Shown one piece after another: positions 649 through 32,853 of a stretch of DNA of 64,000 nt (within the stretch, counting starts at the first letter, position 1; every line of letters starts with the position of its first letter). Both the position numbers and the translations under genes were made by a program. Below the pieces are notes generated by a model. The model was given only the letters and a program-made list of their open reading frames with translations. It made no database searches and was not told the origin of the DNA. The stretch lies in NCBI GenBank assembly GCA_950069165.1, contig CATMIT010000001.1, positions 320-64,319 on the forward strand. The letters run 5' to 3'. This stretch comes from an uncultured Flavobacteriales bacterium. Lineage in GTDB: Bacteria; Bacteroidota; Bacteroidia; Flavobacteriales; BACL11.

Positions 649-651
649 AAT

Positions 652-1173
652 TTAAGCTTCTTTTTCGTTAATTTCAGTAGCGCCTGTTTTGGTCAACATT
701 TCTTTAACAGGAGAGCTGTCGCCATCCACATTTATTACCATCAAAAATTTGTCATCAGTTGTTCTCTCATCAGGGCTGTCAGATGTTCCTCCTGGAAATA
801 ATCCACATCTTATTAAATAAGTAATTGACATAAGGTGAGCCGCAAACAGCACTGTACATTCAAACAAAATAGGGACAAATGCTGGCATATTATGATAGAA
901 GGTAAAGTTAGGTTTTCCACCAATATTTTGTGGCCAATCTACAATCATGATATTATAAATCATGAGTGCTCCTAAACTTAAACCTAAACATCCATAAATG
1001 AAAGCCATTATAGCCATTCTTGTTTCTTTAAGACCCAAGGCTTTGTCTAATCCGTGTATAGCAAAAGGAGAAAATACTTCTTCAATTTCAATATTATTGG
1101 CACGGATTTCTTTTACTGAGGCCAATAAAACCTCTTCATCATCAAAAATTCCGTATAGTGTATTTGTACTCAT
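652..1173 (-). CDS. actD: Alternative complex III membrane subunit ActD (DUF3341-like)
   Basis: 173 aa with two central hydrophobic helices. The start overlaps the ActC stop at 1173, and it lies between the NrfD-like and cytochrome c subunits. Confidence 0.7.
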   Translation of the reverse strand: MSTNTLYGIFDDEEVLLASVKEIRANNIEIEEVFSPFAIHGLDKALGLKETRMAIMAFIYGCLGLSLGALMIYNIMIVDWPQNIGGKPNFTFYHNMPAFVPILFECTVLFAAHLMSITYLIRCGLFPGGTSDSPDERTTDDKFLMVINVDGDSSPVKEMLTKTGATEINEKEA

Positions 1174-2552: not shown

Positions 2553-2558
2553 AATTAT

Positions 2559-5513: not shown

Positions 5514-5544
5514 TTTATTATAGAAATTAAATCTAACTATTTTT

Positions 5545-6753: not shown

Positions 6754-6924
6754 GTTTTTTTAATGTTCAATTTTTCGGCTGTAAATTTAATTTTTTCAAT
6801 GGATAGAAATAGGTAGAAAATCATTAATTAATGTAATTTATAGCCATTCTAAATAATAGATAAAAGCCTCTAATAAAACCGGAAGTAAAGATGTGCTTTA
6901 ATTAGTTTATTACTTTTGCATATT

Positions 6925-16955: not shown

Positions 16956-17891
16956 TTATCTCATTATCTCTTTTTCAGTTGCAGGAGCAAAACGAATACC
17001 TAGCATAAACTCATGCGATCCAGAAGTGTAATCTCCTAATCCTGAAGTTACCATATCATAAGAATATCCTATTAAGTATCTGTCTCCTATCGAATATCCT
17101 AATAATAAACCAATATCTCCATTGGTTCTGTAATTCGTTCCCATCCACAATTTGTTTTGATAGGTTACCTTCACCCCTATATCAACTTGAGTAGGTGCAG
17201 GCGTAACTGATTTTACTAAAACAGATGGCTCTACCACATAATCATAATTTACTTTCCACTTATAACCAGCCATTGCAAAATAGTGTCGTTCCAAACTTCC
17301 ATCAGGATTAAAATTATAAGTATCTAAATAATGATCTTCAAAAAATCCTAATTTGCTATTTAGTAGTTGAGGAATAGAAGCCCCAACATACCAATCTTTG
17401 GAATATAAATAAAATGCAAAAGTTGCATCAGGGACAGAAGAACTAAGAATACCGCCTTGAGCTTGAGGTTCAAAATCTTTGAAATGAAGATGATTAGGGT
17501 CAATCTTAATTTGGGTAAATCCTCCTGATAATGCCAACGACATTTTCATATTATCTGTTAAAGAAAAATGATACGCATAGGATAATGAAAGCCCTGTTCT
17601 ACTTGTTGGACCAACTTGGTCGCTAAAAACTACACCGCCTAATCCAACATTACTATCTCTATATTTTCCATAAATACTTAGTACTGTAGTTCTAGGAGCA
17701 TCTGTCACTCCTACCCATTGATTTCTGATATTTGTTTTCATTTGATAACTACTTTCTATTCCAGCTATTGCCGGATTAAACACATAATCGTTAATCATAT
17801 ATTGCGTAAACTGAGGCAATTGTTGCGCTTTAGCAACAAATGCAGTAGAAATTATCAAAATAAGAATTGTAATTTTCTTCATAATTTTCAT
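16956..17891 (-). CDS. Type IX secretion system outer-membrane protein, PorP/SprF family
   Basis: Signal peptide plus the N-terminal signature QQLPQFTQYMINDYVFNPAIAG and beta-barrel-like alternating pattern. The start is 2 nt after the stop of the type B cargo gene. Confidence 0.85.
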   Translation of the reverse strand: MKIMKKITILILIISTAFVAKAQQLPQFTQYMINDYVFNPAIAGIESSYQMKTNIRNQWVGVTDAPRTTVLSIYGKYRDSNVGLGGVVFSDQVGPTSRTGLSLSYAYHFSLTDNMKMSLALSGGFTQIKIDPNHLHFKDFEPQAQGGILSSSVPDATFAFYLYSKDWYVGASIPQLLNSKLGFFEDHYLDTYNFNPDGSLERHYFAMAGYKWKVNYDYVVEPSVLVKSVTPAPTQVDIGVKVTYQNKLWMGTNYRTNGDIGLLLGYSIGDRYLIGYSYDMVTSGLGDYTSGSHEFMLGIRFAPATEKEIMR

Positions 17892-17892
17892 T

Positions 17893-20800
17893 TTACCTAA
17901 TAATAGTTATTGCTCCGCTTTGCAGATCCGAATTATTATTCAAGTTAATTATATAGTAATAAGTACCAATTGGTAATGGTGATCCTTCATGTGTTCCATC
18001 CCATTTGTTATCATTATAAGTATCTCCTTTTACACTAAATAATAGAGAACCCCATCTATTGTAAACCTCAATTACAGCATCAGGATAACGGTCAATATCT
18101 TCAATTTCCCAGAAATCATTATAGCCATCTCCATTTGGCGAAATACCATCATAAACCATAACCCCAACTACAACTCTTATAGAGTCATAACCTTGACAAC
18201 CTTGAGCATCTTGAACCATTATATAATATGTAGTGCTAACCTCAGGACTTACATTAATTTCTTTTGTGGTTTCTCCATTGCTCCACAAATAGTAGAGATA
18301 CGAATATGCTGACCCTAACACCACATTATCATTAAGTTTAATGGGAACATCTAATGGATAAGAGTATGTTTCTCCATTTGCTAAACCGTATGGTACAATA
18401 GGTAACTGAGGGGCCCAAATACTTGCTGTTATGGAGAAAGAACAATTCCTAGCAGAATCTACTACTGTTAAAATGTAATCTGTTCTAGGGGCTGTAGGGG
18501 TTACTGTTATAGTAGGTGTAACTTGTCCGGTATTCCAGCTATAAGTGAAGGTAGGATTATCTACTACACTTAAGGTAATATTGTCTCCCAAACAAATGGT
18601 ATCGGTAAAATAATCGATAAAGTCTGGTAAGAAAATAGCATCAACTGCATTTACATAAGTAGAAGCAGATTCTACACATCCATTTGTATCTGTTACCGTA
18701 ACAGAATATAAGTCAGGTGAAAGCCCTGTAACAGTTTGTGTTGTTTGCCCAGTAGGACTCCATAAATAACTAATGTAAGGAGTTGTGCCTCCAAATACAT
18801 TAGCTATGGCAGTTCCATCATCCATAAGGCAAGTTTCATCTGTAGAATCAGCAGTAACAATAAGCGGGCTAGCTGTCTGTGTAATCAGTACATTACTAGA
18901 TGTTACAGTACATCCTTTAGAATCTGTAACCGTTACTTCATAAATTCCAGGCGCAAGTGCTGTAGCAGTTTGTGTTGTTTGCCCTCCAGGACTCCAACTA
19001 TATGTATATGTTCCTGATGGTGATATTGGTGTCCCTCCTGTAGGATTTGCTGTTATAGTTCCATCATCAAATCCGAAACAACTTACATTTGTTGATGTAA
19101 CATCTACACTCAAATCAGTTGGTTCACCCAAATAAATTTCAGTAGTGTCCATACAGCCATTTGCATCAGTTGCAATAACTACATAGCTTCCTGTTCCTAT
19201 ATTAGAAAGAGTTGAAAATACTCCAGTTGTTGTAACCCCTGTATTCCAATCGTAAGTATAGCTAGAACCGGTAGGTGTTCCTCCTGTTGCAACTGCTTTT
19301 AACTTCCCATCATTTTCACTATAGCAAGAAACTCCATCTAGCACACTAGCGGTCACCTCTAGTTCAGAAGGCTGAGTTATAGACTGAGTTATTATATATA
19401 CACAGCCAATTGCATCTGTTATAGTATCCGTATAAACAGTAGAAAGGGTACTATTATTTGCGCATAAACCAATAGAAGTAGATGTAATTTGAGAAAGCGG
19501 ATCATCCCAAATATTGGTATAAATAGGGTTTCCATTAGAATCAAAAAATGGCATTCCACCTGTTATTGCTACTTCAATAAATCCATTACAATAGCCATAA
19601 CAGCTTACATCTTGTTTGTTAGTTACGGTTGCGATTAACCTATCGTTATCATTCACAAAAGTTCCTGCAGTTGATTCGCAATTATTTGCATCAGTCACTG
19701 TGATGGAATAAAATCCAACAAGTAAACTGGTTATCGTATAAGTAGTCTCTCCATTTGGAGCCCAAAGATATGTATAGCCAGGAACGCCGCCAAAAACTGA
19801 GTCGGTAATCCTTCCATTACTCCAGCCATCACATGTTACATGAGTTGTCACTATATTATGCTGAATCGGATCTGGCTGAGTCATTGTAATAAATTGTTGT
19901 TTTACACAACCATTTGCATCAACTATATTTAATGTATAAAGCCCAGCATTTAGAGAGATATTTGAAAAATTGTTTAATGGAAAATAATTGGTTTGTACAG
20001 TATCTCCCTGTGCATTAGTTAAAGTTTTCGTATACGGCACAACCCCTCCACTTACTGACACAGTAATCCAACCAGTGCTATCTCCATTACATCTTATTTC
20101 GTAAGCATTATAATCTGAAGTAGTAATTGTTGTGTTTAGTGGTTGTGGCTGTTCAATAATGATGATATCGGCAACCACACAATTATGATCATCAAAAACT
20201 TCTACTGTATAAGTGCCAGGACCGTAGCCATTAAAATTAGCAAGATGTGAAACTGGTACACTTCCATTAACAGAATACATATAAGGTCCGGTTCCTCCAG
20301 CTGCACCGCCTCCAGTAAAGGGGTAGATGTTTTGAATGTATCCATTATTATATCCATTACAGCTTACATGTTGGAAAATTACTGAATCGATAAGTAGTGA
20401 ATCTGGCTCTGTAATTGTTTGCATCATGGATGCTGTACATCCTTTATTGTCTTTCACCACAATGTTATAAGTGGCAGGAGATAAGCCAATAAAACCTATT
20501 GCTGTTTGGTAAGTATTTCCACCGTCTTTCGAATAAACATAAGATGGTGTACCACCAGTTGCCAGCACTACAATAGAGCCATTGCTTGCATCTTTACAGG
20601 AAATTTGTGCAACAATAAGTGAATCTATAGAAACAGGAGCAGCTGGTTCAAGTACTTCAACAGAGTCTGTATGCACACAATTGTTAAAATCTGTGATTGT
20701 AATGATATGATATCCTGCATCCAAACTATCAGCAAAAGCAGTATTATCTCCATTATCCCAGAGGTAAGTATAAGGAGTTACTCCTCCTGAAACATATACT

Positions 20801-23800
20801 GTAGCGCTCCCATCACTAAATCCAAAACAGAAAACCGAATCCATAACAAAAGAATCCGTAACAAGTGCTGCAGGTTCATTTACTATAATAGTAGCACTTA
20901 CCATACAACCATTAAAATCTGTTACATCAACCGAATAATTTCCTGCTGACATATTTGCAGTTTGAGTCATTGCCCCATTAGACCATAAATAAGAATATTG
21001 TAAAACTCCACCACTAGCATTAACTGTTGCTGTTCCATCATTACCTCCATTACAAAGCACATCAGTGGAAGTAATTGATAGAATATACAAACTATCTGGC
21101 TGAGTCATTGTGACAGATGTTGAAGTATCTACACAACCATTAGTATCGGTTACTATTACTGAAAAAGATCCAATACTTAATCCTGTGGTAGTTTGTGTAG
21201 TTTGTAAGTTTGACCAACTATAAGAATATCCTGGTGTTCCACCAGAATGATTAACTGTAATATCTCCATCAGATCCTCCATAACAGCTTACTTCATTTAT
21301 TGTAAATGAATCAATAACTAAAAGAGCCGGTTCTAAAACAAAAACCGAATCTCTCTCCACACAGCCATTAGAATCTCGAACAGTTACAAAATAAGATGCC
21401 TGTCCAGAAGGACCATATTGCACACCCGCATTTTGCCAAGTGCTTCCACCATTAATACTAAACTGATAAGGGGTTGTCCCTGCTGTTGCGGATGGAGTAA
21501 TCATACCATCACCTGCTCCAAAACAACTTACATTCTGAACTGCAACAGATAAAATTGGCTGAGGGATTTGCTGCACAATAATAGTATCATACGCCATACA
21601 TCCATTATCATCCGTTACAATTACGGTATAAGTTCCGGCAACTAATAGACTCATATTTGCAGTAGTAGCTCCTGTATTCCAAAGATAAGAATAGTTTGGA
21701 GTTCCTCCGCTTGCAACTACCTCAGTAGTTCCGTTTGCTACAGTCCCTCCACACATGGAAGAAGTAGATGAAACAGAAGTTGTTAGCTGTGTTGGCTCTC
21801 CTATTATAACTGTATCAGGAGGATAAATTGTACATCCATTTGCATCTGTAACTGTTAGCCAATAAGTCCCAGCAGACAGACCTCCAATACTATCGGTTGT
21901 TGCTCCTGTACTCCAAGCGTATGAATAGGTAGGCGTTCCACCAGAAATTGTCGCAACTTCAGCAGTTCCTGAACTGCCACCATTACAAAGCACATCAGTA
22001 GAACTAAGTGTAAATATTATCTCGGATGGTTCCGAAATCTGCACTGCCATACTATCTGTACAGCCATTTACATCATTTACAAAAATGATATAATTCCCTG
22101 CAGGTAGTCCATAAAAAGTAGAATCGTTTTGAGGATTTACAGCATCAATATAGAACCAATAAGTCCCAGGACCAGAACCTCCAGTTGCTGAAACAGAAGC
22201 AACCCCAAGTGAATCTCCGAAACAAGGCACCATAAAAAGGGAATTAGCAGAATCTAATTCTAGATTTACAACTGTTGGCTCAGTTACATTTACCGTATCA
22301 CTTGTTAAACATCCGCTTCCATCTGTTATAATTACTACATAAATTCCGGCAGCTAACCCTGTAGCAGTTGCTGTATTTTGGGAATTAGGATCATCCCACT
22401 GATATGTGAGCGGAGAGGCGTAAACTCCAGTGACTACCACTGTTGCTGTCCCATAATTTCCTCCATTACAAGAAACATCTGTGGTAGAAGAGGAAAGGGT
22501 CATGTTTGTACCTAGAACAAAGACATCATCTGCTATGGTACAGCCATTAGTATCGGTAACGATAACTGTATAAGTACCTGTCGATAAATTATTGGCAGTG
22601 CTAGTAGTTTGTCCTCCAGGATTCCATGAGTAAGTATAAGGCATAACTCCTCCTCCAACTATTGCTATTGCTTGTCCGTCTCCTGCACCACAATTCTCCA
22701 TTATAGAATCCATTTGTAAAGTTAGAATTGGAGGTTCAGTAAGTAGAATACTGCCCTGAGAAGTACAACCATTGGCATCTGTTGCGTTCACAGTAAGTAA
22801 ATTATTGGCACATTGTCCATTAAAATTAGAAAATGACTGAGAAGCTCCACCATTTAAAGAATATAAATAAGATGGTACTCCCCCTGTTGATGTTACATGA
22901 ATATTTCCATTACAATCTCCATTACAAGCTAAATCAAATCCATTATAACTTGAAGTGGTAGTTAAGGCAATGGAATAAGGGTTTGGCTCAGAGATAGTAA
23001 TACTTACCGTTTTCGTACATCCATTAGCATCTTGAGCTATAATTGTATATGACCCTCCTGCCAAATTGGGAAAGAAGGTATAAGTTCCGAAAGTTCCTCC
23101 ATTAATAGAATAAGTGTAAAGTGGCGTTCCGCCATTTACAGAATCTACAGAAATTGTTCCATCAGTTGCGCCATTACAACTCACGCCCCAACCGTTATAA
23201 TTGCTCACACTTAGATATAAATTCAATGAATCTGGTTGATTCAAATACAAAGAATCCGTAAATGTGCAATCATTTATATCTTGAACAGTTATGTTATAAT
23301 CAGTATCGCCACAAAGTTGGCTAAAAGTGGCTGAATTTTGATAAGATCCTCCATTCAGTGAATATTGATAGATTGGTGTCCCTGGCGAACTAGGATCTAC
23401 AGTAAAGGTGATTTGCCCATTACAATAACTATTACAAGAAATTGCAGATGAAACGGAAACAGTTCCACTTAAATCTGGTGGATCTTGTAGTATAAGAGTA
23501 TCAGATGTTTCGCAACCATTTATATCTCTGTATGTTATTATGTGCTGACCAGATGATAGACCCTGAAAATAAGGATTAGAGGAAAAAATTCCTCCATTTA
23601 TCGAAAATTGAACAGGAGGGGTTCCTCCTGATATTACCTGTGCTAAAATTGTTCCATTACTACCACCAAAACAGCTAATATCCTGCCCATTATAGTTAGA
23701 GGAAATAATAGAATTTGGCACTAATGCCGGAGGTGAAGTAATTGTCTGGTTTCTGGTTTTTGTACAGCCATTGGCATCCGTTATTATTACTTGATATGCT

Positions 23801-24840
23801 CCTGCTGGAACATTTAAAAAGTCAATAGCATTAGCTACAATTGGTGTACTAGGACCATTATTTAATGTTACAGAATAAGGAAGTACTCCTCCAAAAACAT
23901 TTAAATGCAAATCGGCTACACTATCTCCAAAACACAAAGAAGGACTTGTAGTAGTAAATGTTGGCATAATATTTGGAGGTTGTGTTATATTAATAAAGGC
24001 TTGTGCTGTACATGTGCCAGAGGTATCGGTTACTGTTACTCTATAATTATTTGCCGGTAGCAATGTGAATGTCGCAGTATCATAAGTAGTTTGTGTACTT
24101 AATTGATACCAATTCCCAAAAATATTATACTCTAATAAATAAAGAAATTGGGTATTCCAAAAAGCGCCACCAAGGGTTATTACCTGAATTGTAGCATAAT
24201 CACCAAAACACACTATGGTATCTGTTAAATTAATAGAAGCACTCAAACTGCTACCAGTAATATTAAATGTTTCTGTAGGGCAGTTGGTAGTGCTTGTCCC
24301 GTCATTATAATTAACGGTATAAGTTTGATTTCCTGCACATAAATTAGAGGTAACTGCCGGCAGAGTTTGAGATGCCCCTCCATTTACTGAAACCCCATAA
24401 GTATAGCCAGGAAATTGTTGATTAATATTTATTGTTGAAGTTACATTACAATTTGTAGAATCACACACAAGTGGTGGATTCAAACTATTGTTAACAATTG
24501 GTTCTAAAATTTCGAAAGTATCGGAAACCATAGTAGCTGGGCAAGAACCTGAAAGGGACTGGGTGCCAACAACCACATACAATCCTGCAGCCAAGGTGCT
24601 TACTGATGTTATTGTAGGGCCACTGCCATAATTTTGCCCATTGGTTAAATTATCCCAAGAATAATTAATATATGGTGTTTGTGTTAAATTAGCAAATCCA
24701 TCTGATCCTCCTGGACATGTTACCTGAGTAATATTTGCAGTATCCACAATAATATCACATTGTGCATACGTATTATTTGCACCTAACAATCCAACTAATA
24801 GACCTAAATAAATTATAACACTCCTTCTTTTCATAAGCAT
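17893..24840 (-). CDS. Giant (2315 aa) SprB-repeat cell-surface adhesin with a T9SS type B (gliding-motility-associated) C-terminal sorting domain
   Basis: Signal peptide. There are about 22-24 tandem modules of about 75-80 aa, each ending in a [TD]D-x-[NGK]-G-C motif. The C-terminus ISPNGDGYNDFWEIEDIDRYPDAVIEVYNRWGSLLF..WDG..LPIGTYYYII matches the type B CTD. Confidence 0.9.
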   Translation of the reverse strand: MLMKRRSVIIYLGLLVGLLGANNTYAQCDIIVDTANITQVTCPGGSDGFANLTQTPYINYSWDNLTNGQNYGSGPTITSVSTLAAGLYVVVGTQSLSGSCPATMVSDTFEILEPIVNNSLNPPLVCDSTNCNVTSTININQQFPGYTYGVSVNGGASQTLPAVTSNLCAGNQTYTVNYNDGTSTTNCPTETFNITGSSLSASINLTDTIVCFGDYATIQVITLGGAFWNTQFLYLLEYNIFGNWYQLSTQTTYDTATFTLLPANNYRVTVTDTSGTCTAQAFINITQPPNIMPTFTTTSPSLCFGDSVADLHLNVFGGVLPYSVTLNNGPSTPIVANAIDFLNVPAGAYQVIITDANGCTKTRNQTITSPPALVPNSIISSNYNGQDISCFGGSNGTILAQVISGGTPPVQFSINGGIFSSNPYFQGLSSGQHIITYRDINGCETSDTLILQDPPDLSGTVSVSSAISCNSYCNGQITFTVDPSSPGTPIYQYSLNGGSYQNSATFSQLCGDTDYNITVQDINDCTFTDSLYLNQPDSLNLYLSVSNYNGWGVSCNGATDGTISVDSVNGGTPLYTYSINGGTFGTYTFFPNLAGGSYTIIAQDANGCTKTVSITISEPNPYSIALTTTSSYNGFDLACNGDCNGNIHVTSTGGVPSYLYSLNGGASQSFSNFNGQCANNLLTVNATDANGCTSQGSILLTEPPILTLQMDSIMENCGAGDGQAIAIVGGGVMPYTYSWNPGGQTTSTANNLSTGTYTVIVTDTNGCTIADDVFVLGTNMTLSSSTTDVSCNGGNYGTATVVVTGVYASPLTYQWDDPNSQNTATATGLAAGIYVVIITDGSGCLTSDTVNVTEPTVVNLELDSANSLFMVPCFGDSLGVASVSATGGSGPGTYWFYIDAVNPQNDSTFYGLPAGNYIIFVNDVNGCTDSMAVQISEPSEIIFTLSSTDVLCNGGSSGTAEVATISGGTPTYSYAWSTGATTDSIGGLSAGTYWLTVTDANGCTIYPPDTVIIGEPTQLTTSVSSTSSMCGGTVANGTTEVVASGGTPNYSYLWNTGATTANMSLLVAGTYTVIVTDDNGCMAYDTIIVQQIPQPILSVAVQNVSCFGAGDGMITPSATAGTTPYQFSINGGSTWQNAGVQYGPSGQASYFVTVRDSNGCVERDSVFVLEPALLVIDSFTINEVSCYGGSDGDITVNHSGGTPGYSYSWSNLQTTQTTTGLSIGSFSVIVTDTNGCVDTSTSVTMTQPDSLYILSITSTDVLCNGGNDGTATVNASGGVLQYSYLWSNGAMTQTANMSAGNYSVDVTDFNGCMVSATIIVNEPAALVTDSFVMDSVFCFGFSDGSATVYVSGGVTPYTYLWDNGDNTAFADSLDAGYHIITITDFNNCVHTDSVEVLEPAAPVSIDSLIVAQISCKDASNGSIVVLATGGTPSYVYSKDGGNTYQTAIGFIGLSPATYNIVVKDNKGCTASMMQTITEPDSLLIDSVIFQHVSCNGYNNGYIQNIYPFTGGGAAGGTGPYMYSVNGSVPVSHLANFNGYGPGTYTVEVFDDHNCVVADIIIIEQPQPLNTTITTSDYNAYEIRCNGDSTGWITVSVSGGVVPYTKTLTNAQGDTVQTNYFPLNNFSNISLNAGLYTLNIVDANGCVKQQFITMTQPDPIQHNIVTTHVTCDGWSNGRITDSVFGGVPGYTYLWAPNGETTYTITSLLVGFYSITVTDANNCESTAGTFVNDNDRLIATVTNKQDVSCYGYCNGFIEVAITGGMPFFDSNGNPIYTNIWDDPLSQITSTSIGLCANNSTLSTVYTDTITDAIGCVYIITQSITQPSELEVTASVLDGVSCYSENDGKLKAVATGGTPTGSSYTYDWNTGVTTTGVFSTLSNIGTGSYVVIATDANGCMDTTEIYLGEPTDLSVDVTSTNVSCFGFDDGTITANPTGGTPISPSGTYTYSWSPGGQTTQTATALAPGIYEVTVTDSKGCTVTSSNVLITQTASPLIVTADSTDETCLMDDGTAIANVFGGTTPYISYLWSPTGQTTQTVTGLSPDLYSVTVTDTNGCVESASTYVNAVDAIFLPDFIDYFTDTICLGDNITLSVVDNPTFTYSWNTGQVTPTITVTPTAPRTDYILTVVDSARNCSFSITASIWAPQLPIVPYGLANGETYSYPLDVPIKLNDNVVLGSAYSYLYYLWSNGETTKEINVSPEVSTTYYIMVQDAQGCQGYDSIRVVVGVMVYDGISPNGDGYNDFWEIEDIDRYPDAVIEVYNRWGSLLFSVKGDTYNDNKWDGTHEGSPLPIGTYYYIINLNNNSDLQSGAITIIR

Positions 24841-25012: not shown

Positions 25013-26122
25013 ATGAAAATTGCAATTTTAGGCACTAGAGGTATTCCAAATAATTATGGAGGGTTTGAGCAATGTGCAGAATATTTATCGGTTGGTTTGG
25101 TGGGAAAAGGACATGATGTAAGTATTTATAATCCTAATTTTCATCCCTACAAAGAAAGCAGTTTTAAAAAAGTAAAAATCATAAGAAAAGCAAGCCCTCA
25201 ACAGTACTTTGGAAATTCTGTTTCTAATTTTATTTATGATTATTTCTGTTTGAAAGATGCCGTAAAAAGAGATTTTGATATTATACTTGAATTGGGCTTA
25301 ATCACTTCTTCTTTATCAATTATCTTTTGCAGACATAGAGGAAAGATTATTGTCACAAATTTAGATGGATTAGAGTGGAAAAGATCGAAATGGAATAAAA
25401 TTGTGCAAAAAATAACCAAAACTTTGGAAAAATATGGCGTGATGTTTTCAGATTATTTAATTGCAGACAATATTGGTATGCAAAAATATATTTGGGAGGA
25501 ATACAGCAGAGAATCTGAGTTAATTGCTTATGGTACAGAAAATAATAAGGAGCCAAATCCAAATTGCTTAAAAGAATATGGATTAGAGAGAAATACCTAT
25601 TTGCTATCTATTGCTCGATTAGAACCTGAAAATAATTTGGAAATGATGTTTGATGCTTATGTAAAAAGTGAAATAAGCAATCCTTATTTTGTAGTTGGAA
25701 ATCATTTAACTTCTCATGGCGATTTTTTAAAAGACAAGTACCGAGATTCTGGTATCCTTTTTTTAGGAGGAATTTTTAATAAAGACCATTTGGATAATAT
25801 CCGTTTTTATTCCAAATACTATTTGCATGGCCATTCGGTTGGAGGTACTAATCCATCACTATTGGAAGCAATGGCGACAAAAACTTTTATTCTTTCGCAT
25901 GATAATCGTTTTAATAAATCAGTGATTGAAGAAAATGCTTTTTACTTTTCAAATTCTGAGGAATTGGTCAGTTTATTAAAAAATGAAAACTTAACAAATC
26001 AAAAAAAAACTTTTGCATTAAATAATTTAAAGAAAATTGATAGCGTTTATAGATGGGCGATTGTTGTGGCCCAATACGAATCCTATTTTAAAAGAATTCT
26101 AAAAGAATCTAATCGACAATAA
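25013..26122 (+). CDS. Glycosyltransferase family 1 protein with a DUF1972-type N-terminus
   Basis: N-terminus MKIAILGTRGIPNNYGGFEQCAEYL, C-terminal GT-B motif GGTNPSLLEAMA. Confidence 0.75.
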   Translation: MKIAILGTRGIPNNYGGFEQCAEYLSVGLVGKGHDVSIYNPNFHPYKESSFKKVKIIRKASPQQYFGNSVSNFIYDYFCLKDAVKRDFDIILELGLITSSLSIIFCRHRGKIIVTNLDGLEWKRSKWNKIVQKITKTLEKYGVMFSDYLIADNIGMQKYIWEEYSRESELIAYGTENNKEPNPNCLKEYGLERNTYLLSIARLEPENNLEMMFDAYVKSEISNPYFVVGNHLTSHGDFLKDKYRDSGILFLGGIFNKDHLDNIRFYSKYYLHGHSVGGTNPSLLEAMATKTFILSHDNRFNKSVIEENAFYFSNSEELVSLLKNENLTNQKKTFALNNLKKIDSVYRWAIVVAQYESYFKRILKESNRQ

Positions 26123-27233
26123 ACAAATCAGATGCAATCGCATCCGCAAATATCTTCCCTGATTTTGTAAGCGTGTAAGTGTTTTTGCATTTCTTTATAT
26201 TCTTTTTCCTCTCCCATTTTTTTATTTCTTTAAGAAAATGAATTTGCTTGCCAAATCTTTCTTTGATTATTTCTAAATTTGCACCCCAAATGGTTCGTAA
26301 GGATGTGAAAACATATTCATTGTATTGTTGAGAAATGCTGAGTTTCTCTGTTTCAAAATAATCTTCTCCTTTTTTTATTTTCTGTATATATTGTTTGTTG
26401 GAAGATACATTCCAACTTCTACTATTTCCGTTGAAAGAATGTGCAGAAGGCCCTACGCCAAGATAATGTTTATTTTTCCAATAAGAAGTATTGTGTTTGG
26501 AATAAAAACCCGCTTTGCCAAAGTTGGAAATTTCATAATGTACAAATCCCTTTTGCTGAGCAAGTTCCATTAAAATGTTGAACTGTTCGATTACTATTTC
26601 GTCTTTTAAAGGGATTATTTTCTTTTGTTCAACTAAATGCTTTAAAACCGTTTTCTCTTCAATGGTAAGTGCGTAAGAGGAAAAATGTGGAATATCTAAT
26701 GCAAACATTTTATTCAAATTCTTCTTCCAATCCGCTAAAGATTGATTTGGCAAACCATAAATTAAATCAATAGTAATATTGTTAAAGCCTACTTGCTGAG
26801 CCATTTGTATGCAACTTTCGGATTGTGTGGCATTGTGTGAACGATTCATAAATTTCAAATCGGCATCAACAAAGGATTGCACACCAATACTCAACCTATT
26901 TATTCCAACTTCTTTTAATGCTATTAACTTATTTTTAGTCAAATCATCCGGATTGCATTCCAAAGTAATTTCTGCATTTTCTTTTATTTTGTAGATATTG
27001 GAAATAGAATCTAAAATAGATTTTATTTCACTTTTACTTAAAATAGATGGCGTTCCGCCACCAAAATAAATGGTCTCAATTGTTTTATTTTTTAAGTACG
27101 ATTGACGTAATTCTAATTCCATTTTGATGCATTTTAGCATTTCCTTCTTGTCCTTTTGCGAAATTCTGAAATGAAAATTACAATAAGTACAAGCTTGTTT
27201 ACAGTAGGGAATATGTATGTAAATGCCTGCCAA
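26109..27233 (-). CDS. hemW: Radical SAM heme chaperone HemW (HemN-like, oxygen-independent coproporphyrinogen oxidase family)
   Basis: IYIHIPYCKQACTYCNF (CxxxCxxC), GGGTPS, HemN_C-like tail. The apparent start codon is TTG. Confidence 0.85.
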   Translation of the reverse strand: MAGIYIHIPYCKQACTYCNFHFRISQKDKKEMLKCIKMELELRQSYLKNKTIETIYFGGGTPSILSKSEIKSILDSISNIYKIKENAEITLECNPDDLTKNKLIALKEVGINRLSIGVQSFVDADLKFMNRSHNATQSESCIQMAQQVGFNNITIDLIYGLPNQSLADWKKNLNKMFALDIPHFSSYALTIEEKTVLKHLVEQKKIIPLKDEIVIEQFNILMELAQQKGFVHYEISNFGKAGFYSKHNTSYWKNKHYLGVGPSAHSFNGNSRSWNVSSNKQYIQKIKKGEDYFETEKLSISQQYNEYVFTSLRTIWGANLEIIKERFGKQIHFLKEIKKWERKKNIKKCKNTYTLTKSGKIFADAIASDLFIVD

Positions 27234-27313
27234 AGTATTTTTGTAAAAAGTTTTGCTAATATAAAAAAGGAATTACTTTTACCGCAATTAAGATTAAATC
27301 TAAATAAAGAAAA

Positions 27314-28476
27314 ATGAAAAAAATCAGTTTGTCTGTAGCGGTTGTTTTTACAATGATAACTGTAACAAAAGCACAAAACAGTGCAGAAAAAATTATTGCA
27401 GGGAATCAGGGGCTACATATTGGTGGTTATGGTCAAATTGACTTTAATTTACCGACAAGAGATGGTACAATTTACAAAAACGGAACTTTGGATGTGCACC
27501 GCTTTATTACTTTTATAGGGTATAAATTTAACGAGAAGGCTTCTTTTGTGTCCGAAATTGAGTTTGAACATGTTACGGAAGTGTATATTGAACAAGCGTT
27601 TTTGGATTACAAAATTAAAGATAACCTTTCGGTAAGTGCAGGTTTAATGCTTATCCCAATGGGTATTCAAAATTTGTATCATGAGCCCCCAACTTATAAT
27701 GGGGTGGAAAGAACCAATGTGGACAAATACATTGTACCGACAACCTGGAGAGAATTGGGAATTAGTTTGAGCGGAAGAAGTATTGATAACTCTTTAAACT
27801 ATCAATTTATGGTGGTAAATGGCTTTAACGGTTATGATGATGGAGGAAAATTTTCTGGTAAAAGTGGCCTAAGAGGAGGAAGCCAAAAGGAGCAGAATCC
27901 TACATTACTTTTCCTGATTTAGCAGGGCGGATTTCTTACTATGGCCAGCCAGGATTAAACTTAGGGCTCTCCGCTTATGTTGGAGATTCTGAAAGCAAAG
28001 CTTATGATGGATTAGATTTGGCTGATGAAACGGCTGTTGCATCTGCTGATTCAACCATTATTGGTATTCAAATGCTTGGTGTGGATGCGAGATACCAAAA
28101 AGGCGCTTTACAACTAAGGGGACAATATATCATTGCTAATTTATCCAATACTGATCAGTATAATGCTAAATCTTCTACTGACTTGGGAAGTAAAATGACT
28201 GGATATTATGCAGAGCTTGGATACAATATATTAGCAAATTATAATACTACAAATGAGCTAATTTGTTTTGCTCGATATGAAAACTATAACACGCATGCAG
28301 AAGCAGAAAAAGCAACTGTAATAAATGATGCTTACAACAGAACTGACATCACAATAGGATTAGGGTTTAAGCTGGCGCAAGGAGCTATGTTTAAAGCAGA
28401 TTACCAATTATTATCTGATGAGTCTAGTGAAAATAAAAAAGGACAATTTAATTTCGGAACTGCAATTTGGTTCTAA
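27314..28476 (+). pseudogene. Outer-membrane beta-barrel porin-like gene interrupted by a -1 frameshift (two ORFs, 27314-27922 and 27862-28476)
   Basis: The first ORF has a signal peptide and ends ..SGLRGGSQKEQNPTLLFLI*. The other frame is open from 27862 and reads ..KGAESYITFPDLAGRISYYGQPGLNLG.. through to a C-terminal ..GTAIWF. The two frames join at the run CAAAAGG (27884-27890). Confidence 0.7.
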
Positions 28477-28494
28477 ATAAAAGGATTTTGCATA

Positions 28495-29031
28495 ATGCAT
28501 ATTAAAAACAATATAAGTAAGACTGCCACTATTTTAGTGGTTGCTTTGCTTTTTTTCTCATTCAAATTTTCCGATTGGGAATTTGATAAAAAGTATAGAG
28601 CTCTTATTCATAAATCTATTTCTGAAATATTTAATAGTAGCACCTATATTACGGAAGAATTGGAATCTTTTGAGGAGTCCTTTTATACCATAAAAGAAAG
28701 TGAAAAAATTGTAGGATATTTTGTAGTTGCCAAGGCTCCATCCAAATTTCATCAGTTTGATTATTACATTATTTTTAATGCGAAAACGGATATTCTTAAA
28801 ATCGAAATTCTGCAATACAGAGAAAATTATGGGGCAGAAATTTGCAATAAAAGATGGCTTAAAAAATTCAACCATATTTCAACATACAATTATGCAAAAT
28901 ATAATCGTGAAATTGATGGAATTTCAGGAGCAACAATCTCAGTAAATAGTTTGAAAAAAGATGTTTTTCATCTTACAAATGTGTTAAAAGAAAAACTTTT
29001 TAATGATGATAAAAATCATAAAAAATACTAA
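28495..29031 (+). CDS. Membrane-anchored FMN-binding (FMN_bind) domain protein with an ApbE-type flavinylation motif
   Basis: N-terminal hydrophobic anchor and C-terminal IDGISGATISVNSL (Dxx[ST]GA[TS] motif). Confidence 0.7.
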   Translation: MHIKNNISKTATILVVALLFFSFKFSDWEFDKKYRALIHKSISEIFNSSTYITEELESFEESFYTIKESEKIVGYFVVAKAPSKFHQFDYYIIFNAKTDILKIEILQYRENYGAEICNKRWLKKFNHISTYNYAKYNREIDGISGATISVNSLKKDVFHLTNVLKEKLFNDDKNHKKY

Positions 29032-29056
29032 GCGCACATTTGCCTAAATTCTGAAA

Positions 29057-31132
29057 TTGAAAAACACCTTGTTTTTTTTAAGCATTTTATTTGTTTTTAC
29101 TGCATTTGGTCAAACTAAAAGCGATAGTATTTCTATTAAAAAAAAGCATAAAGAAGTAAGCATTTCGGCTACAAAATCAAGCAAATCATTGGATGCTTTG
29201 CCAATTCCAGGAAGTATAATTAGCGAAAAAGAAATTACTGAAACTGCAGCAACTAAGTTAGATGAGGTAATTGAAAAGCAAACGGGAATTATAAGCGTGC
29301 CGACTAAAACAGGAACTAAGGGTGTGCAAATGCAAGGGCTTGATGCTTCCTATATCGCCATTCTTTTAGATGGCTGTCCAATGATTGGTAGATCATTTGG
29401 GGCATTTGATTTAAATAGAATTTCTCTTGCTGACATTGAAAAGATTGAAATTATAAGAGGAGCCTCCTCTTCTTTGTATGGCTCTAATGCATTGGGGGGA
29501 GTAATTAATCTAATCAGTAAAAACCAAGTGGAAGATGGAAAGAATATGTTTTTGAGCATGAAATATGGCACTAACAATAGCTTAAATTCTAGCGCACTTT
29601 ATCAATATAAAAAAGGAGGACTGCAACTTTCTAATTCCATGGATTATTATAAAACGGATGGTTATGATTTGATAGATTCTGATTTGCTTAACACTATCAA
29701 TCCTCTTAGCAATTATTCTTTTCGCATTAAAATAAAGTACGATTTGTCAGAAAAAATAATTTTAAAAGCGAATGGGCGATATTTTAATCAAGAGCAAGAA
29801 AACACAGGGGAGAAATCTAATTTGCTTTTGGAAGGCGAAAGCCAAATCAAGGAATGGAATTTAGGTTCTTCTATTAAATATTTGATGCATTCTAATTTTT
29901 CTACAGAAGCGGAAATTTATACTACAAATTATAGAACAGATGAGTTTTTGCTAAATCAAAATGGCAGCTTATTTGACAAGAATTATTTTGACCACACCCT
30001 ATTGCAATCAGAATTAAGGAATAATTTTAACTTTAAAGCAATAAATGGAATTATTGGATTTGGGATGACAAAGGAGAAATTAGACCGAAAATATTTTTCT
30101 AGTATCGCCCAACAAGATTTAAAGTTTTTATATGGGCAATTGGATTGTCTTGCTTTTGGAGTTGTGGATATTATTGCTGGAAGTAGGTATGATAATTATA
30201 GCAATTATGCTACTGAAATTTCTAATAAATTGGCCTTAGGATTTCCCATTTCAAAGCAACTGAAAATAAATAGCTCGGTAGGAACTGGTTTTAAGATTCC
30301 TGATTTCAGACAAAGGTATTTTGATTTTACCAACTCCACAATTGGCTATACAGTTTTAGGAAGAGAAGTGGCTTTTGATAGATTGACTGCCATGGAAAAT
30401 GACGGAATGTTGCAAGGTATTTTTATCCCTTTTTCAGAAATAAATTCTCCATTAAAATCAGAAACTTCCCTTAATATAAATGTGGGAATTAAATTTAAGG
30501 TTAATGAAAAAACATCTTTTAACATCAATTTTTTCAAGAATGAAGTAGTTAATTTAATTGAGGCACAACTAGTGGCTAACAAAACAAATACTTTGCCTGT
30601 TTTTAGTTATTTCAATCTAAATCAAGTGGAAACAAAGGGGATGGAGTTTAATACACGCTTTCGCCCAAATTCTAAATTAGAAATAAAAGCTGGCTATCAA
30701 TTGCTTTTCGCTTTCGATAGTGATATTAAAACTAGATTTGAAACAGGAGATGTGTATGCAAAAGATGCAGAAACATTGGTAAGTTTCAAGCTGAAGAAAG
30801 ACGACTATTTTGGGCTTTTCAATAGATCTAGACATATGGGAAATCTAAAATTGTTTTATCAGTTTAACGACAAATTAGATTTAAATACCATCATCACTTA
30901 TAGAAGCAAATACGCCCTTTATGATTCTAATGGAAATAATTTATTAGACACTTATGATGAGTTTATAGATGGCTATGCCCTTTGTGATGTTGGGATCACC
31001 CATCATACAAATGCTTCCAAATCTATTCAACTGGGCGTGAAAAACATTTTTGATTTTACCAACCCAGAATATATTAGCAATATTTCAGGAAGATTATATT
31101 ATATTAACCTTAAAATAAATTTTAAAAACTAA
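29057..31132 (+). CDS. TonB-dependent outer-membrane receptor
   Basis: Signal peptide, plug-domain motifs (IEIIRGASSSLYGSNALGGVINLISK), and a roughly 500-aa beta-barrel region. TTG start. Confidence 0.85.
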   Translation: MKNTLFFLSILFVFTAFGQTKSDSISIKKKHKEVSISATKSSKSLDALPIPGSIISEKEITETAATKLDEVIEKQTGIISVPTKTGTKGVQMQGLDASYIAILLDGCPMIGRSFGAFDLNRISLADIEKIEIIRGASSSLYGSNALGGVINLISKNQVEDGKNMFLSMKYGTNNSLNSSALYQYKKGGLQLSNSMDYYKTDGYDLIDSDLLNTINPLSNYSFRIKIKYDLSEKIILKANGRYFNQEQENTGEKSNLLLEGESQIKEWNLGSSIKYLMHSNFSTEAEIYTTNYRTDEFLLNQNGSLFDKNYFDHTLLQSELRNNFNFKAINGIIGFGMTKEKLDRKYFSSIAQQDLKFLYGQLDCLAFGVVDIIAGSRYDNYSNYATEISNKLALGFPISKQLKINSSVGTGFKIPDFRQRYFDFTNSTIGYTVLGREVAFDRLTAMENDGMLQGIFIPFSEINSPLKSETSLNINVGIKFKVNEKTSFNINFFKNEVVNLIEAQLVANKTNTLPVFSYFNLNQVETKGMEFNTRFRPNSKLEIKAGYQLLFAFDSDIKTRFETGDVYAKDAETLVSFKLKKDDYFGLFNRSRHMGNLKLFYQFNDKLDLNTIITYRSKYALYDSNGNNLLDTYDEFIDGYALCDVGITHHTNASKSIQLGVKNIFDFTNPEYISNISGRLYYINLKINFKN

Positions 31133-31162
31133 CCCAAATAACAATAACAAAAAACAAAAACA

Positions 31163-31939
31163 ATGAAAACGAAATTAGTTTTATCTATGCTTACACTAGC
31201 TGTTGTGTTTACAGCATGTAAAAAGGAAAGTCCTGAACCTATTACTGGATGTACAGACCCTACAGCTATTAATTTTAATCCATTAGCTTCTATTGATGAT
31301 AGCTCTTGCGTATATGATATTTATGGATGTACAGACTCTACTGCTATTAATTTTAATCCATTAGCTTCTATTGATGATAGCTCTTGTATTTATGAGACAA
31401 TAGTTGCTGGAACAATTACTGAATTAGACGCTCAGGCAGCAACATTTGCACCTAACCCTCCACCAGAACCCCCAACCATTACTGGAGATTATACAAAATT
31501 CAGTTTTGCAGAAGGAACTGTAGTTGAGGGAGACGATTGGGATGTTGCTTTCAGATCAACTTCTATTATTTTTAATGGGGGCATGGCTTCTGATACATCT
31601 CAACCAAACAGAACAGGAAATGCTGCTGTGTATTTGATAGATGGCACAATGGAAGATATTAGCTTAGTAGATGAGAGTTTATTGCTGCAAGATGAGGCAA
31701 CTTCTACTGCAATAATTGATGATATGGGCATTCAGCAAATGGGCTGGTGTATTTATGATTTCGCTACCAATATGATTTCACCAATTGCGGGAAAAATACT
31801 AGTGGTAAGAACGCACGATAACAAATATGCTAAAATTGAGATTCTTAATTTTTATGATGCTACATGTACAAATGTGTATGGAGGATTTTATACCTTCAAC
31901 TATGTGTATCAATCAGAAGAAAGTAATTTAACTTTTTAA
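31163..31939 (+). CDS. HmuY-like lipoprotein with two N-terminal Cys-bounded repeats
   Basis: Lipobox VFTAC. HmuY-family motifs WDVAFRST..IFNGG and ILVVRTHDNKYAKIEILNFY. It is adjacent to a TonB-dependent receptor. Confidence 0.65.
   Translation: MKTKLVLSMLTLAVVFTACKKESPEPITGCTDPTAINFNPLASIDDSSCVYDIYGCTDSTAINFNPLASIDDSSCIYETIVAGTITELDAQAATFAPNPPPEPPTITGDYTKFSFAEGTVVEGDDWDVAFRSTSIIFNGGMASDTSQPNRTGNAAVYLIDGTMEDISLVDESLLLQDEATSTAIIDDMGIQQMGWCIYDFATNMISPIAGKILVVRTHDNKYAKIEILNFYDATCTNVYGGFYTFNYVYQSEESNLTF
31247..31396 (+). repeat. In-frame tandem duplication (78-bp unit, about 1.9 copies) encoding GCTD[PS]TAINFNPLASIDDSSC[VI]Y
   Basis: Unit 1 is 31247-31324 and unit 2 starts at 31325. The DNA is nearly identical over about 66 nt of each unit. 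Confidence 0.9.
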
Positions 31940-31959: not shown

Positions 31960-31995
31960 AGAAAAGTCCCCTATTTGGGTACTTTTCTTATTTTT
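31960..31995 (+). terminator. Rho-independent terminator after the HmuY-like gene
   Basis: AGAAAAGT(CCC..GGG)ACTTTTCT stem followed by TATTTTT, 21 nt after the stop. Confidence 0.6.
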
Positions 31996-32010: not shown

Positions 32011-32853
32011 ATGGACAAAGATTATTTTTCTCATCTAAGCCCAGAAGAAAGGGGAATTCTAAAAAACAAAGGAACAGAAGCTGCCTTTTCTGGGGTATAC
32101 AATGACTTTTTTGAAGTTGGAATCTTTGTTTGTAGGGCTTGCGAAAATCCACTTTATGAGTCCAATACCAAATTTAATTCTGACTGTGGTTGGCCATCAT
32201 TTGATGATGAAATTATTGATTCCATTAAAAAATATGAAGATTTAAGTGGCGGAAGTGTTCGTGCAGAAATTTGTTGTGCAAAATGTGATGGTCATTTGGG
32301 GCATGTTTTTGAAGGAGAACAAATAACTACAAAAAATACTCGACATTGTGTAAACTCTTTAAGCATAAAATTTGTATCGCACAGCAATTTGGAAATAGCC
32401 GCTTTTGGGGCAGGCTGTTTTTGGTCGGTGGAGAAAATTTTCAAATCTGTAAAAGGCGTTTATATGGTGCAAGTCGGCTATATGGGAGGGGATACCTTAA
32501 ACCCCACCTACAATGATATTTGTAGAGGTGATACAAATCATGCTGAGGTTTTACAAATCGCTTTTAACCCTGAAATTATTTCCTACTCTGACTTACTGAA
32601 AGTCTTTTGGCAAAATCATAATCCTACCACTTTAAACAGGCAAGGACCGGATATGGGAACGCAATATCGTTCCGTAATTTTTTACTATTCTGAGCTGCAG
32701 AAAAGACAAGCAGAGCAGTCAAAACAAGAAGCTCAAACTAACTTTACTGCTCCCATTGTCACACAAATAGTAGCATCCTCTATCTTCTACCGAGCAGAGG
32801 AATATCATCAAGATTATCTGGAGAAAAATAATTTAGGAAATTGTAGTTTATGA
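32011..32853 (+). CDS. msrAB: Bifunctional methionine sulfoxide reductase (MsrB domain then MsrA domain)
   Basis: MsrB zinc/catalytic motifs CRACENPLY..CAKCDGHLGHVF..RHCVNS. MsrA motif GAGCFWSVE..GYMGG. Confidence 0.92.
   Translation: MDKDYFSHLSPEERGILKNKGTEAAFSGVYNDFFEVGIFVCRACENPLYESNTKFNSDCGWPSFDDEIIDSIKKYEDLSGGSVRAEICCAKCDGHLGHVFEGEQITTKNTRHCVNSLSIKFVSHSNLEIAAFGAGCFWSVEKIFKSVKGVYMVQVGYMGGDTLNPTYNDICRGDTNHAEVLQIAFNPEIISYSDLLKVFWQNHNPTTLNRQGPDMGTQYRSVIFYYSELQKRQAEQSKQEAQTNFTAPIVTQIVASSIFYRAEEYHQDYLEKNNLGNCSL

Follow-up and report, generated by a model that had tools for sequence, protein, structure and literature searches.

Porin–flavoprotein and TonB receptor–HmuY modules behind a predicted Fur operator in an uncultured Flavobacteriales bacterium

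Gene content of the locus

We analysed a stretch of 64,000 nucleotides from an uncultured Flavobacteriales bacterium (contig CATMIT010000001.1 of assembly GCA_950069165.1), referred to here as the window. It holds a block of co-directional genes encoding an outer-membrane porin, a flavoprotein of the FMN_bind family (FMN, flavin mononucleotide), a TonB-dependent receptor and a HmuY-family lipoprotein (Table 1). An initial annotation of this DNA had described four co-directional genes separated by 18, 25 and 30 nt. The coordinates, the common strand and exactly these gaps were recovered, but the first gene is split by a frameshift into two open reading frames (27314-27922 and 28018-28476) that are pieces of one gene. 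In the closest relatives (L085; loci from our genome scans carry L numbers) the genes are only 9-10 nt apart.

The terminator noted earlier behind the lipoprotein gene is indeed a hairpin with a T-run (dG -16.9 kcal/mol, z = -3.1), and 0/200 shuffled sequences fold as well. A simple terminator scan did not report this hairpin.

At the other end of the block lies a candidate promoter. Bacteroidota promoters follow a -33/-7 consensus, TTTG / TAnnTTTG. The relatives carry TACTTTTG at the -7 element, fitting TAnnTTTG, and the promoter element is kept in an upstream alignment of 11 relatives. The same consensus is mentioned in PMC5609570. A sigma-70-type promoter scan, which is unsuited to Bacteroidota, gave background level only and was set aside.

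Table 1. Features of the porin–flavoprotein–receptor–lipoprotein block (window coordinates)
Feature	Coordinates	Strand	Evidence and remarks
Candidate Bacteroidota-type promoter	27252..27281	+	TTTG (27252-27255), 18-nt spacer, TACTTTTA (27274-27281); read from sequence
Fur-box-like palindrome ATTAAGATTAAATCTAAAT	27287..27305	.	Against flavobacterial ATTTAGAATTATTCTAAAT: 15/19 (+), 16/19 (-)
Outer-membrane porin gene, 387 aa when intact, frameshifted in the window	27314..28476	+	Open reading frames, weak Porin_O_P match, AlphaFold/Foldseek
1-nt deletion splitting the porin frame	27885..27889	+	Frame translations, DNA alignment to L085, comparison with L086
RnfG/NqrC-like FMN_bind protein, 178 aa	28495..29031	+	Pfam PF04205, AlphaFold, Foldseek
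Flavinylation motif D141-G-I-S-G-A-T147-I-S149	28915..28941	+	Thr147 codon (predicted FMN attachment) 28933-28935
TonB-dependent receptor, 691 aa, Plug and 22-strand barrel domains	29057..31132	+	Pfam
HmuY-family lipoprotein, 258 aa, HmuY domain residues 109-247	31163..31939	+	Pfam PF14064, alignment
78-nt tandem repeat inside the HmuY-like gene	31246..31395	+	Tandem Repeats Finder: 1.9 copies, 93% identical
Intrinsic-terminator-like hairpin and T-run closing the co-directional block	31960..31995	+	Sequence and folding

Synteny separates two modules

The genomic context of the block was defined with two scans. One covered one genome per GTDB species, was seeded on FMN_bind motifs and continued with tblastn and clustering; the other was a reciprocal scan of metagenomes seeded with HmuY, which gave 30 informative loci. 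Based on these data, the cluster consists of two modules, porin plus FMN_bind protein and receptor plus HmuY-like protein, and is not a fixed four-gene unit. The conserved core is the porin and the flavoprotein, which had been peripheral in the initial annotation.

In the motif-seeded scan, the porin gene lies immediately upstream of the flavoprotein gene and in the same direction in 69 of 81 loci. The taxa with this pair are Bacteroidota, Ignavibacteriales, Calditrichota, Neomarinimicrobiota, Fibrobacteria, Verrucomicrobiota and Alpha-, Beta- and Gammaproteobacteria, and Pelagibacterales, Gallionella and Sideroxydans are among the carriers. Most porin–flavoprotein cassettes have no HmuY or receptor gene.

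Close relatives of the window differ in how the modules are combined. In L006 and L008 the porin and FMN_bind genes are followed directly by msrBA and there is no receptor, while in L001-type relatives an opposite-strand AraC regulator gene lies between flavoprotein and receptor, and an extra Cys-rich open reading frame precedes HmuY. Such an AraC gene separates the modules in L001, L104 and L125. For the window, the short gaps, the common strand and the terminator agree with the single operon that had been proposed; the accompanying check, whether the four-gene order is conserved in relatives, came out negative, as the order is interrupted in L001-type loci and the receptor is absent from L006 and L008. 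In the HmuY-seeded scan the cassette lies upstream in 17 of the 30 informative loci. The 13 loci without it have a different conserved context, in which Pfam identified a response regulator, a histidine kinase, a rhodanese, TauE and a methyltransferase. The same result led us to reject a nos or copper cluster beside these cassette-free pairs, and it gave no clue to the ligand.

It could be argued from these arrangements that the modules are functionally independent, the receptor–lipoprotein pair having been inserted between flavoprotein and msrBA in one marine Flavobacteriales lineage, with no mechanistic meaning in the adjacency. The direct runs from flavoprotein to msrBA, the intervening AraC genes and the 13 cassette-free HmuY loci all speak for such independence, as do receptor regions that have their own promoter and no Fur box. 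What speaks against it is that the juxtaposition occurs separately, with differing order, strand and partners; at least four different arrangements place a HmuY-domain gene, a receptor gene or both next to the flavoprotein. L110-L113 have the order porin, FMN_bind, four-helix membrane protein (see below), receptor, X, HmuY, and L034 has receptor, HmuY, DUF6607, FMN_bind, four-helix protein. In L024 and L029 the HmuY/receptor operon is divergent from a DUF6607-FMN_bind operon, and the two share one intergenic region with a Fur box between them. L021 has a HmuY protein of the type IX secretion system type beside DUF6607, FMN_bind and the four-helix protein. In another phylum, the Neomarinimicrobiota loci L041 and L048 run porin, FMN_bind, four-helix protein, TetR, receptor, with a truncated HmuY-type gene in L048 only and none in L041. 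HmuY-domain genes are rare per genome, so repeated chance adjacency appears very unlikely, by a rough estimate rather than a computed test. We regard functional independence as unlikely. The link between flavoprotein and HmuY-like/TonB uptake, as claimed by the initial annotation, recurs in the window's clade and in all of the loci just listed.

DUF6607 (PF20311, E 1e-109) is a secreted protein of about 307 aa that replaces the porin upstream of the flavoprotein in four Bacteroidota loci (L021 1421-2344, L024 6878-7804, L029 7082-8005 and L034 6871-7899). All four have an adjacent HmuY-domain gene and an upstream Fur box.

An RnfG-like flavoprotein with a conserved flavinylation motif

The second gene of the block encodes a membrane-anchored FMN_bind protein, as had been claimed: PF04205 matches residues 91-155 with 31.8 bits (cut-off 22), and the AlphaFold model (predicted local distance difference test, pLDDT, 77.6) comprises an N-terminal helix and an alpha/beta domain. 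The helix is hydrophobic (residues 3-21), with no obvious cleavage site. By analogy with RnfG and NqrC, the protein would be anchored in the inner membrane with its flavin domain in the periplasm.

A Foldseek search of the PDB with the model returned full-length RnfG chains as the best matches (8rb9_G, E 1.8e-6, template modelling score, TM, 0.56), followed by NqrC (E 5e-3 to 5e-2), with 13-17% identity in the structural alignments. The NCBIfam model for rnfG gave 20 bits against a cut-off of 102, the nqrC model was also below its cut-off, and a profile search of PDB sequences gave nothing at E <= 1; the fold comparison alone is informative. RnfG and NqrC are known substrates of the flavin transferase ApbE. 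The window's protein resembles them in its N-terminal anchor, FMN_bind fold, SGAT threonine of the kind flavinylated by ApbE and overall length. Unlike them, it has a porin and a receptor as neighbours and no other Rnf or Nqr subunit, as a stand-alone carrier rather than a subunit of a complex.

Residues 140-149 read IDGISGATIS, and the Dxx[ST]GA[TS] site noted earlier is present as D141-G-I-S-G-A-T147. S144, G145, A146 and T147 are invariant in 28 homologues, while the Asp is replaced by Q or S in a few relatives. The motif is found in 74 of 75 cassette orthologues, in a scan that was itself seeded with the motif, and for this reason the 16 orthologues reached independently through the HmuY gene matter as a check: all 16 have it. 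The motif Thr, whose conservation the initial annotation had wanted checked, is therefore retained in both sets of orthologues. We infer that FMN is covalently attached to Thr147 by ApbE.

An outer-membrane porin as the lead gene

The first gene encodes a protein that has a signal peptide and about 16 strands; the long loop joining strands 5 and 6 is highly conserved. In the window its two frames join as ...GLRGGSQK and GAESYITFPD..., with one base missing in the run AAAAGG. L086, which is 99.1% identical to the window over 6.5 kb, has GGAAGACAAAAAGG where the window has GGAAGCCAAAAGG, that is, one extra A and an intact 387-aa porin. The porin is likewise intact in L085 and L166, and the truncated 202-aa product is recorded from one contig only, the 82-kb contig from which the window was taken. 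Given the intact genes in near-identical contigs and this single record, the lesion is an assembly error or a very recent strain-specific mutation. Programmed frameshifting was rejected because the 99%-identical relatives carry a plain intact frame.

The Porin_O_P match is borderline (19.4 bits in the window and 21.9 bits in the intact orthologue, cut-off 20.9). As the window gene is frameshifted, we modelled the 99%-identical intact orthologue (pLDDT 83.5, predicted TM-score 0.80). Foldseek placed the model among the 16-stranded porins OmpM1, PorB, Omp32, DcaP and OprP/OprO at TM 0.55-0.62, the highest query-normalised scores being those of OprO (0.62), OprP (0.61) and DcaP (0.61). The earlier assignment as a porin thus stands as regards the fold of the intact orthologue, but Pfam is borderline and the gene is not one open frame in the window. 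A family profile searched against PDB sequences found OmpG alone (E >= 0.1) and no convincing relative. The family holds at least 4899 proteins at E <= 1e-20 when searched with the intact orthologue; the truncated fragment as query returned only partial proteins.

OprP is known for its Arg ladder. The porin of the cassette shares a 16-stranded barrel and a similar size with the phosphate-selective porins OprP and OprO (Porin_O_P). Its invariant residues are instead a Glu-x-Glu-x-Glu-His strand and a loop with HEP...VER...TTWRE; that strand and the long loop between strands 5 and 6 are its most conserved parts.

Predicted Fur boxes upstream of the porin

A Pfam census of the 89 genes flanking the cassette revealed no enriched family, and we therefore examined the upstream DNA. 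A k-mer search of Bacteroidota and allies, made without prior assumptions, returned TCTAAATAA (12/24 versus 12/175, p = 6e-7). This k-mer is half of the palindrome ATTTAGA-N5-TCTAAAT, which matches the Fur box reported for Riemerella anatipestifer, ATTTAGAATTATTCTAAAT; in electrophoretic mobility shift assays of that study, purified Fur retarded promoter fragments, the hmuR promoter among them (Guo et al. 2017, PMC5609570). Matches of at least 15/19 to ATTTAGAATTATTCTAAAT are present in 16 of 27 upstream regions of porin or DUF6607 genes compared to 10 of 172 other regions (Fisher p = 2.5e-10), and nearly all of these 10 belong to a divergent neighbour of the same intergenic region or to the flavoprotein gene itself. 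The only four exact half-site palindromes in 168 loci are all just upstream of the porin, and many loci have two Fur-box sites.

A second operator dialect shows the same preference. In Proteobacteria and Verrucomicrobiota, the classical Fur box (at least 14/19) occurs upstream of the porin in 9 of 20 loci, compared to 11 of the 105 remaining upstream regions that are intergenic (p = 7e-4).

In the window itself, the palindrome follows the -7 element and precedes the porin ATG by 9 nt; it ranks among the top two matches of the 64 kb. At the orthologous position, relatives have copies matching at 15-19/19, with 19/19 in L110 and L112. The predicted Fur boxes give the iron connection of the cluster direct sequence support. 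The initial annotation had inferred a redox step, such as ferric or heme reduction, coupled to TonB-dependent import; its iron part gains from these predicted operators, and its heme part is not supported (see below).

Weaker sites are found further downstream in some loci. In L009-L012 (Arenibacter) a third Fur-box-like site, ATTAAAAATGATTCTAAAT, lies about 16 nt upstream of the flavoprotein start, and Maribacter L017 has a different weak site, ATTAAGATTAATTCCAAAT, at the same position. Their placement between porin and flavoprotein suggests an internal operator or promoter.

Membrane partners and ApbE

The third gene of the cassette, which follows the flavoprotein gene, encodes a four-helix membrane protein in 28 loci and a short PepSY_TM protein (PF03929) in 26 loci. 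The four-helix protein (in L009 at 8534-9034, and in 27 other loci) has about 166 aa, no Pfam or NCBIfam match, and two invariant motifs, H77-x-H79 where helix 2 begins and E110-P111 within helix 3. We regard it as a candidate for a new partner of flavinylated proteins in electron transfer or metal handling. The PepSY_TM partner, of about 250 aa and with conserved histidines, belongs to 26 proteobacterial and verrucomicrobial cassettes; homology between the two partners was rejected (hhalign probability 2.6%). PepSY_TM is a family of periplasmic ferrisiderophore reductases (PMC13038864; PMC8238504).

In four Verrucomicrobiota and Micavibrio loci (L057, L061, L075 and L080) an ApbE gene directly follows the cassette, which ties the FMN_bind protein to flavinylation. 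In the 64-kb window, tblastn with five ApbE queries found no homologue, and the initial annotation had likewise seen none.

The window's clade (L001, L005-L008, L085 and L086) is without the third gene. Cys117 of the flavoprotein (codon 28843-28845, motif YRENYGAEIC) is invariant in this clade, and lineages with a four-helix or PepSY_TM partner have Gly, Ser or Ala at the same position. This cysteine may act as a redox or ligand residue specific to the clade.

The receptor–lipoprotein pair and the question of heme

Both genes of the second module are what they had been taken for. The receptor has Plug (PF07715, E 1e-20) and barrel (PF00593, E 1.4e-26) domains. The lipoprotein, 30 nt downstream, matches PF14064 with 33.6 bits (cut-off 27) and has a lipobox, ...VFTAC19; the acidic residues that follow Cys19 are consistent with export to the cell surface.

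Neither protein points to a specific ligand. NCBIfam subfamily models for B12, hemin and siderophore receptors all score far below their cut-offs (136 bits against 317 for the heme subfamily TIGR01785, 137 against 600 for the cobalamin model TIGR01779). Among PDB sequences, with all matches at E <= 1e-10, the strongest are the plug regions of CirA and BtuB, with PhuR and ferric enterobactin receptors lower. Cobalamin uptake was rejected on the far sub-threshold BtuB score and the lack of a riboswitch in the window or in eight related loci, where Rfam found nothing but tRNA in the window and no family in the related loci. The HmuY-like protein is only remotely similar to the solved Bacteroides homologues 8b6a, 8b61 and 4gbs (E 2e-4 to 8e-4), and P. 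gingivalis HmuY is not detected from it, even with a profile.

HmuY-family proteins ligate heme through His/His, His/Met or Met/Met pairs (PMC12106395). No such pair is conserved in the subfamily alignment, in whose central region neither His nor Met is invariant and whose sole invariant His belongs to a structural RTHD motif. Members of the family differ widely, some binding heme tightly and others binding no heme and no porphyrin (PMC12106395), and the HmuY-like protein may bind a porphyrin ring without ligating its iron.

These results bear on a reading that builds on the initial annotation, in which the block is a dedicated four-gene heme-uptake operon, a rearranged hmuY-hmuR system whose flavoprotein reduces the imported heme. 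As in P. gingivalis and its Bacteroidota homologues, a HmuY-family surface lipoprotein, above the Pfam threshold, stands beside a TonB-dependent receptor, in the reversed order (receptor then lipoprotein) that had been pointed out. The best, though weak, NCBIfam similarities of the receptor include the heme and B12 subfamilies, a reductase would make sense for HmuY homologues with Met-Met ligands, which prefer reduced heme (PMC12106395), and hmuR of R. anatipestifer carries the same Fur box (PMC5609570). Nevertheless, of the analogy only Pfam membership is left. The ligand pairs are not conserved, the receptor falls below the heme cut-off, only B. fragilis-type homologues are detected (E ~1e-4), and family membership itself does not imply heme binding. 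Instead of hmuSTUV-type genes, the lipoprotein gene is followed by a terminator and msrBA; most porin–flavoprotein cassettes have neither HmuY nor receptor, and close relatives either lack the four-gene order or have it interrupted. Extra Cys-rich repeats in some strains also set the lipoprotein apart. Heme specificity was accordingly rejected: heme as the specific substrate is not supported, and we consider a dedicated heme operon decidedly unlikely.

The 78-nt repeat within the HmuY-like gene encodes two Cys-bracketed units of 26 aa, GCTDxTAINFNPLASIDDSSC. Its copy number varies, near-identical strains having one copy or none (L086 and L166 are without the repeat), and the proteins of the 90% cluster measure 258, 232 and 205-208 aa. 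In other relatives the same motif is found in a separate Cys-rich lipoprotein open reading frame between receptor and HmuY.

A proposed model of reductive iron uptake

We favour a reading in which the block encodes a periplasmic flavin reductase that is induced by iron starvation and serves both porin-mediated and TonB-dependent uptake, two modules having been fused behind a Fur-type operator. We hold this reading to be moderately probable. It draws on the porin–FMN_bind adjacency (69/81), the RnfG/NqrC fold with its SGAT motif, the two Fur-box dialects and the recurrent HmuY/receptor neighbours, as well as on the four-helix or PepSY_TM third gene, the latter from the ferrisiderophore reductase family, and the narrow gaps in the closest relatives.

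Under iron starvation, Fur would leave the operator and all four genes would be expressed from one Fur-controlled promoter. The first module would supply a 16-stranded porin in the outer membrane and an RnfG-like protein anchored in the inner membrane with its flavin domain in the periplasm, to which an ApbE encoded elsewhere would attach FMN covalently at Thr147. In most other lineages, a four-helix or PepSY_TM protein would feed electrons across the inner membrane to this flavin. Small oxidised iron complexes would diffuse into the periplasm through the porin, whereas a larger chelate would be captured by the HmuY-family surface lipoprotein of the second module and imported by the TonB-driven receptor. 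The flavoprotein would then reduce Fe(III) to Fe(II), and the metal would be freed for transport across the inner membrane. The analysis itself demonstrates the gene content and folds, the conservation of the motif, the synteny and the enrichment of Fur boxes; flavinylation, electron source, Fe(III) reductase activity, ligand and co-transcription are all steps that we infer.

Several observations weigh against this reading. The first concerns the window itself, as neither it nor the loci of its clade contain a four-helix, PepSY_TM or ApbE gene. The electron donor and ApbE would both have to be encoded elsewhere in the genome, and their absence is the weakest point for this window. Among the 89 cassette-flanking genes, no ferrous-iron transporter, FTR1, VIT1 or fur is enriched, and the regulators beside the cassette in other lineages (TetR, Crp/Fnr, AraC and two-component systems) would also fit signals other than iron. 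When the receptor–HmuY pair stands alone or behind the AraC gene, in a promoter region of its own, no Fur box is found; the pair may therefore respond to another signal. All Fur-box matches come from consensus scans and are predicted operators rather than binding data. The window's copy is imperfect and lies in an AT-rich genome, and it carries weight because its position is conserved among orthologues rather than by the site alone. Finally, the porin gene is frameshifted in this assembly.

Another explanation would make the cassette a respiratory or protective redox device, which reduces a different soluble oxidant that comes in by way of the porin, or which provides oxidases with copper, a role suggested for the PepSY_TM protein CrpH. 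Many respiratory reductases make use of extracytosolic flavinylated proteins (PMC8238504), and copper and heme-copper oxidases, not iron, are what one PepSY_TM subfamily has been connected with (PMC13038864). In three Bacteroidia loci, Crp/Fnr-type regulator genes come after the cassette, HMA and ArsP genes occur twice each among the neighbours, and msrBA lies downstream in the window's lineage. However, by its sequence MsrBA here has no signal peptide, and neither a terminal reductase nor a catalytic subunit is encoded within the cassette or beside it. Such a device would also leave unexplained the Fur-box enrichment in two unrelated operator dialects and the recurrent position of the cassette beside TonB-dependent uptake genes. 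A redox device of this kind seems to us very unlikely.

Beyond the window, the porin and RnfG-like cassette with its four-helix or PepSY_TM partner could represent a widespread, previously undescribed form of Fur-regulated reductive iron uptake, in which Fe(III) complexes enter through the dedicated porin or a recruited receptor and are reduced by a covalent-flavin carrier. We put this forward tentatively, as a possibility. A literature search of incomplete coverage turned up no paper that describes the cassette or DUF6607. If the proposal is true, streamlined marine bacteria (among them Pelagibacterales, Neomarinimicrobiota and uncultured Flavobacteriales) could obtain organically bound iron without siderophores, in analogy to the reductive uptake of eukaryotes. 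The pathway would account for how cells that have few siderophore systems, or none, gain access to Fe(III)-ligand complexes, and would be a flavin-based counterpart to the heme-based PepSY_TM reductases. Extracytosolic flavinylated proteins have so far been tied to iron assimilation only by gene-neighbourhood surveys and most are uncharacterised; the cassette defined here has a constant outer-membrane partner and predicted operators in two Fur-box dialects, and extends over many phyla, with carriers among the most abundant marine heterotrophs. It is also present in cultured strains, among them Arenibacter troitsensis, Maribacter algicola, Flagellimonas aequoris and Simiduia litorea. The window is a more modest case, one lineage-specific arrangement with its lead gene disrupted in the assembly.

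Comparison with known systems

The system differs from known ones in its flavin carrier, its dedicated porin, its non-PepSY partner in Bacteroidota and its HmuY-type receptor pair. Among those closest to it are the flavinylated systems of the PepSY-like kind (Méheust et al. 2021, eLife, PMC8238504), which also combine an extracytosolic protein bearing the ApbE motif with PepSY_TM, and sometimes with ApbE and a TonB-related gene nearby. Iron reduction for assimilation has been proposed for those systems too, and they are reported to be Fur-repressed in some Proteobacteria (PMC8238504). Their flavin carrier is mainly DUF2271 with DUF4198, whereas that of the cassette is the RnfG-like FMN_bind protein. 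The most constant partner of the cassette is its dedicated porin, while the main text of PMC8238504 does not contain the word 'porin' and has one passing 'outer membrane'. In Bacteroidota, the unrelated four-helix protein takes the place of PepSY_TM, and the window's clade has neither in cis.

Ferrisiderophore reduction of the FoxB/FpvG type is alike in logic, with TonB-dependent import followed by periplasmic reduction of Fe(III) by a membrane-linked reductase. FoxB and FpvG belong to the PepSY_TM family, contain two hemes and work on the siderophore itself, whereas here the redox centre would be a covalent-flavin carrier, and no genes for siderophore biosynthesis or for binding proteins are present.

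Neighbouring genes

The block is flanked in all close relatives by the same two genes. On one side lies a HemN-like radical SAM gene of the HemW type (26109-27233, minus strand), which is divergent from the porin gene and shares the Fur-box intergenic region with it; on the other lies a fused msrB-msrA gene (32011-32853, plus strand).

A second Fur-box-like palindrome in the window, ATTTATAGCCATTCTAAAT (15/19, 6836-6854), is located 83 nt upstream of a minus-strand operon (67-6753) that encodes an Alternative Complex III, with multiheme ActA, Fe-S protein ActB, NrfD-type ActC, ActD and a cytochrome c. This position hints that the iron-rich complex may be iron-regulated as well.

Unrelated to the cluster, the minus-strand region 16956-24840 encodes a repetitive cell-surface protein of 2315 aa followed by a 311-aa gene product. 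L001, a syntenic relative, has counterparts with SprB/CHU_C and PorP_SprF domains, of the gliding-motility adhesin type.

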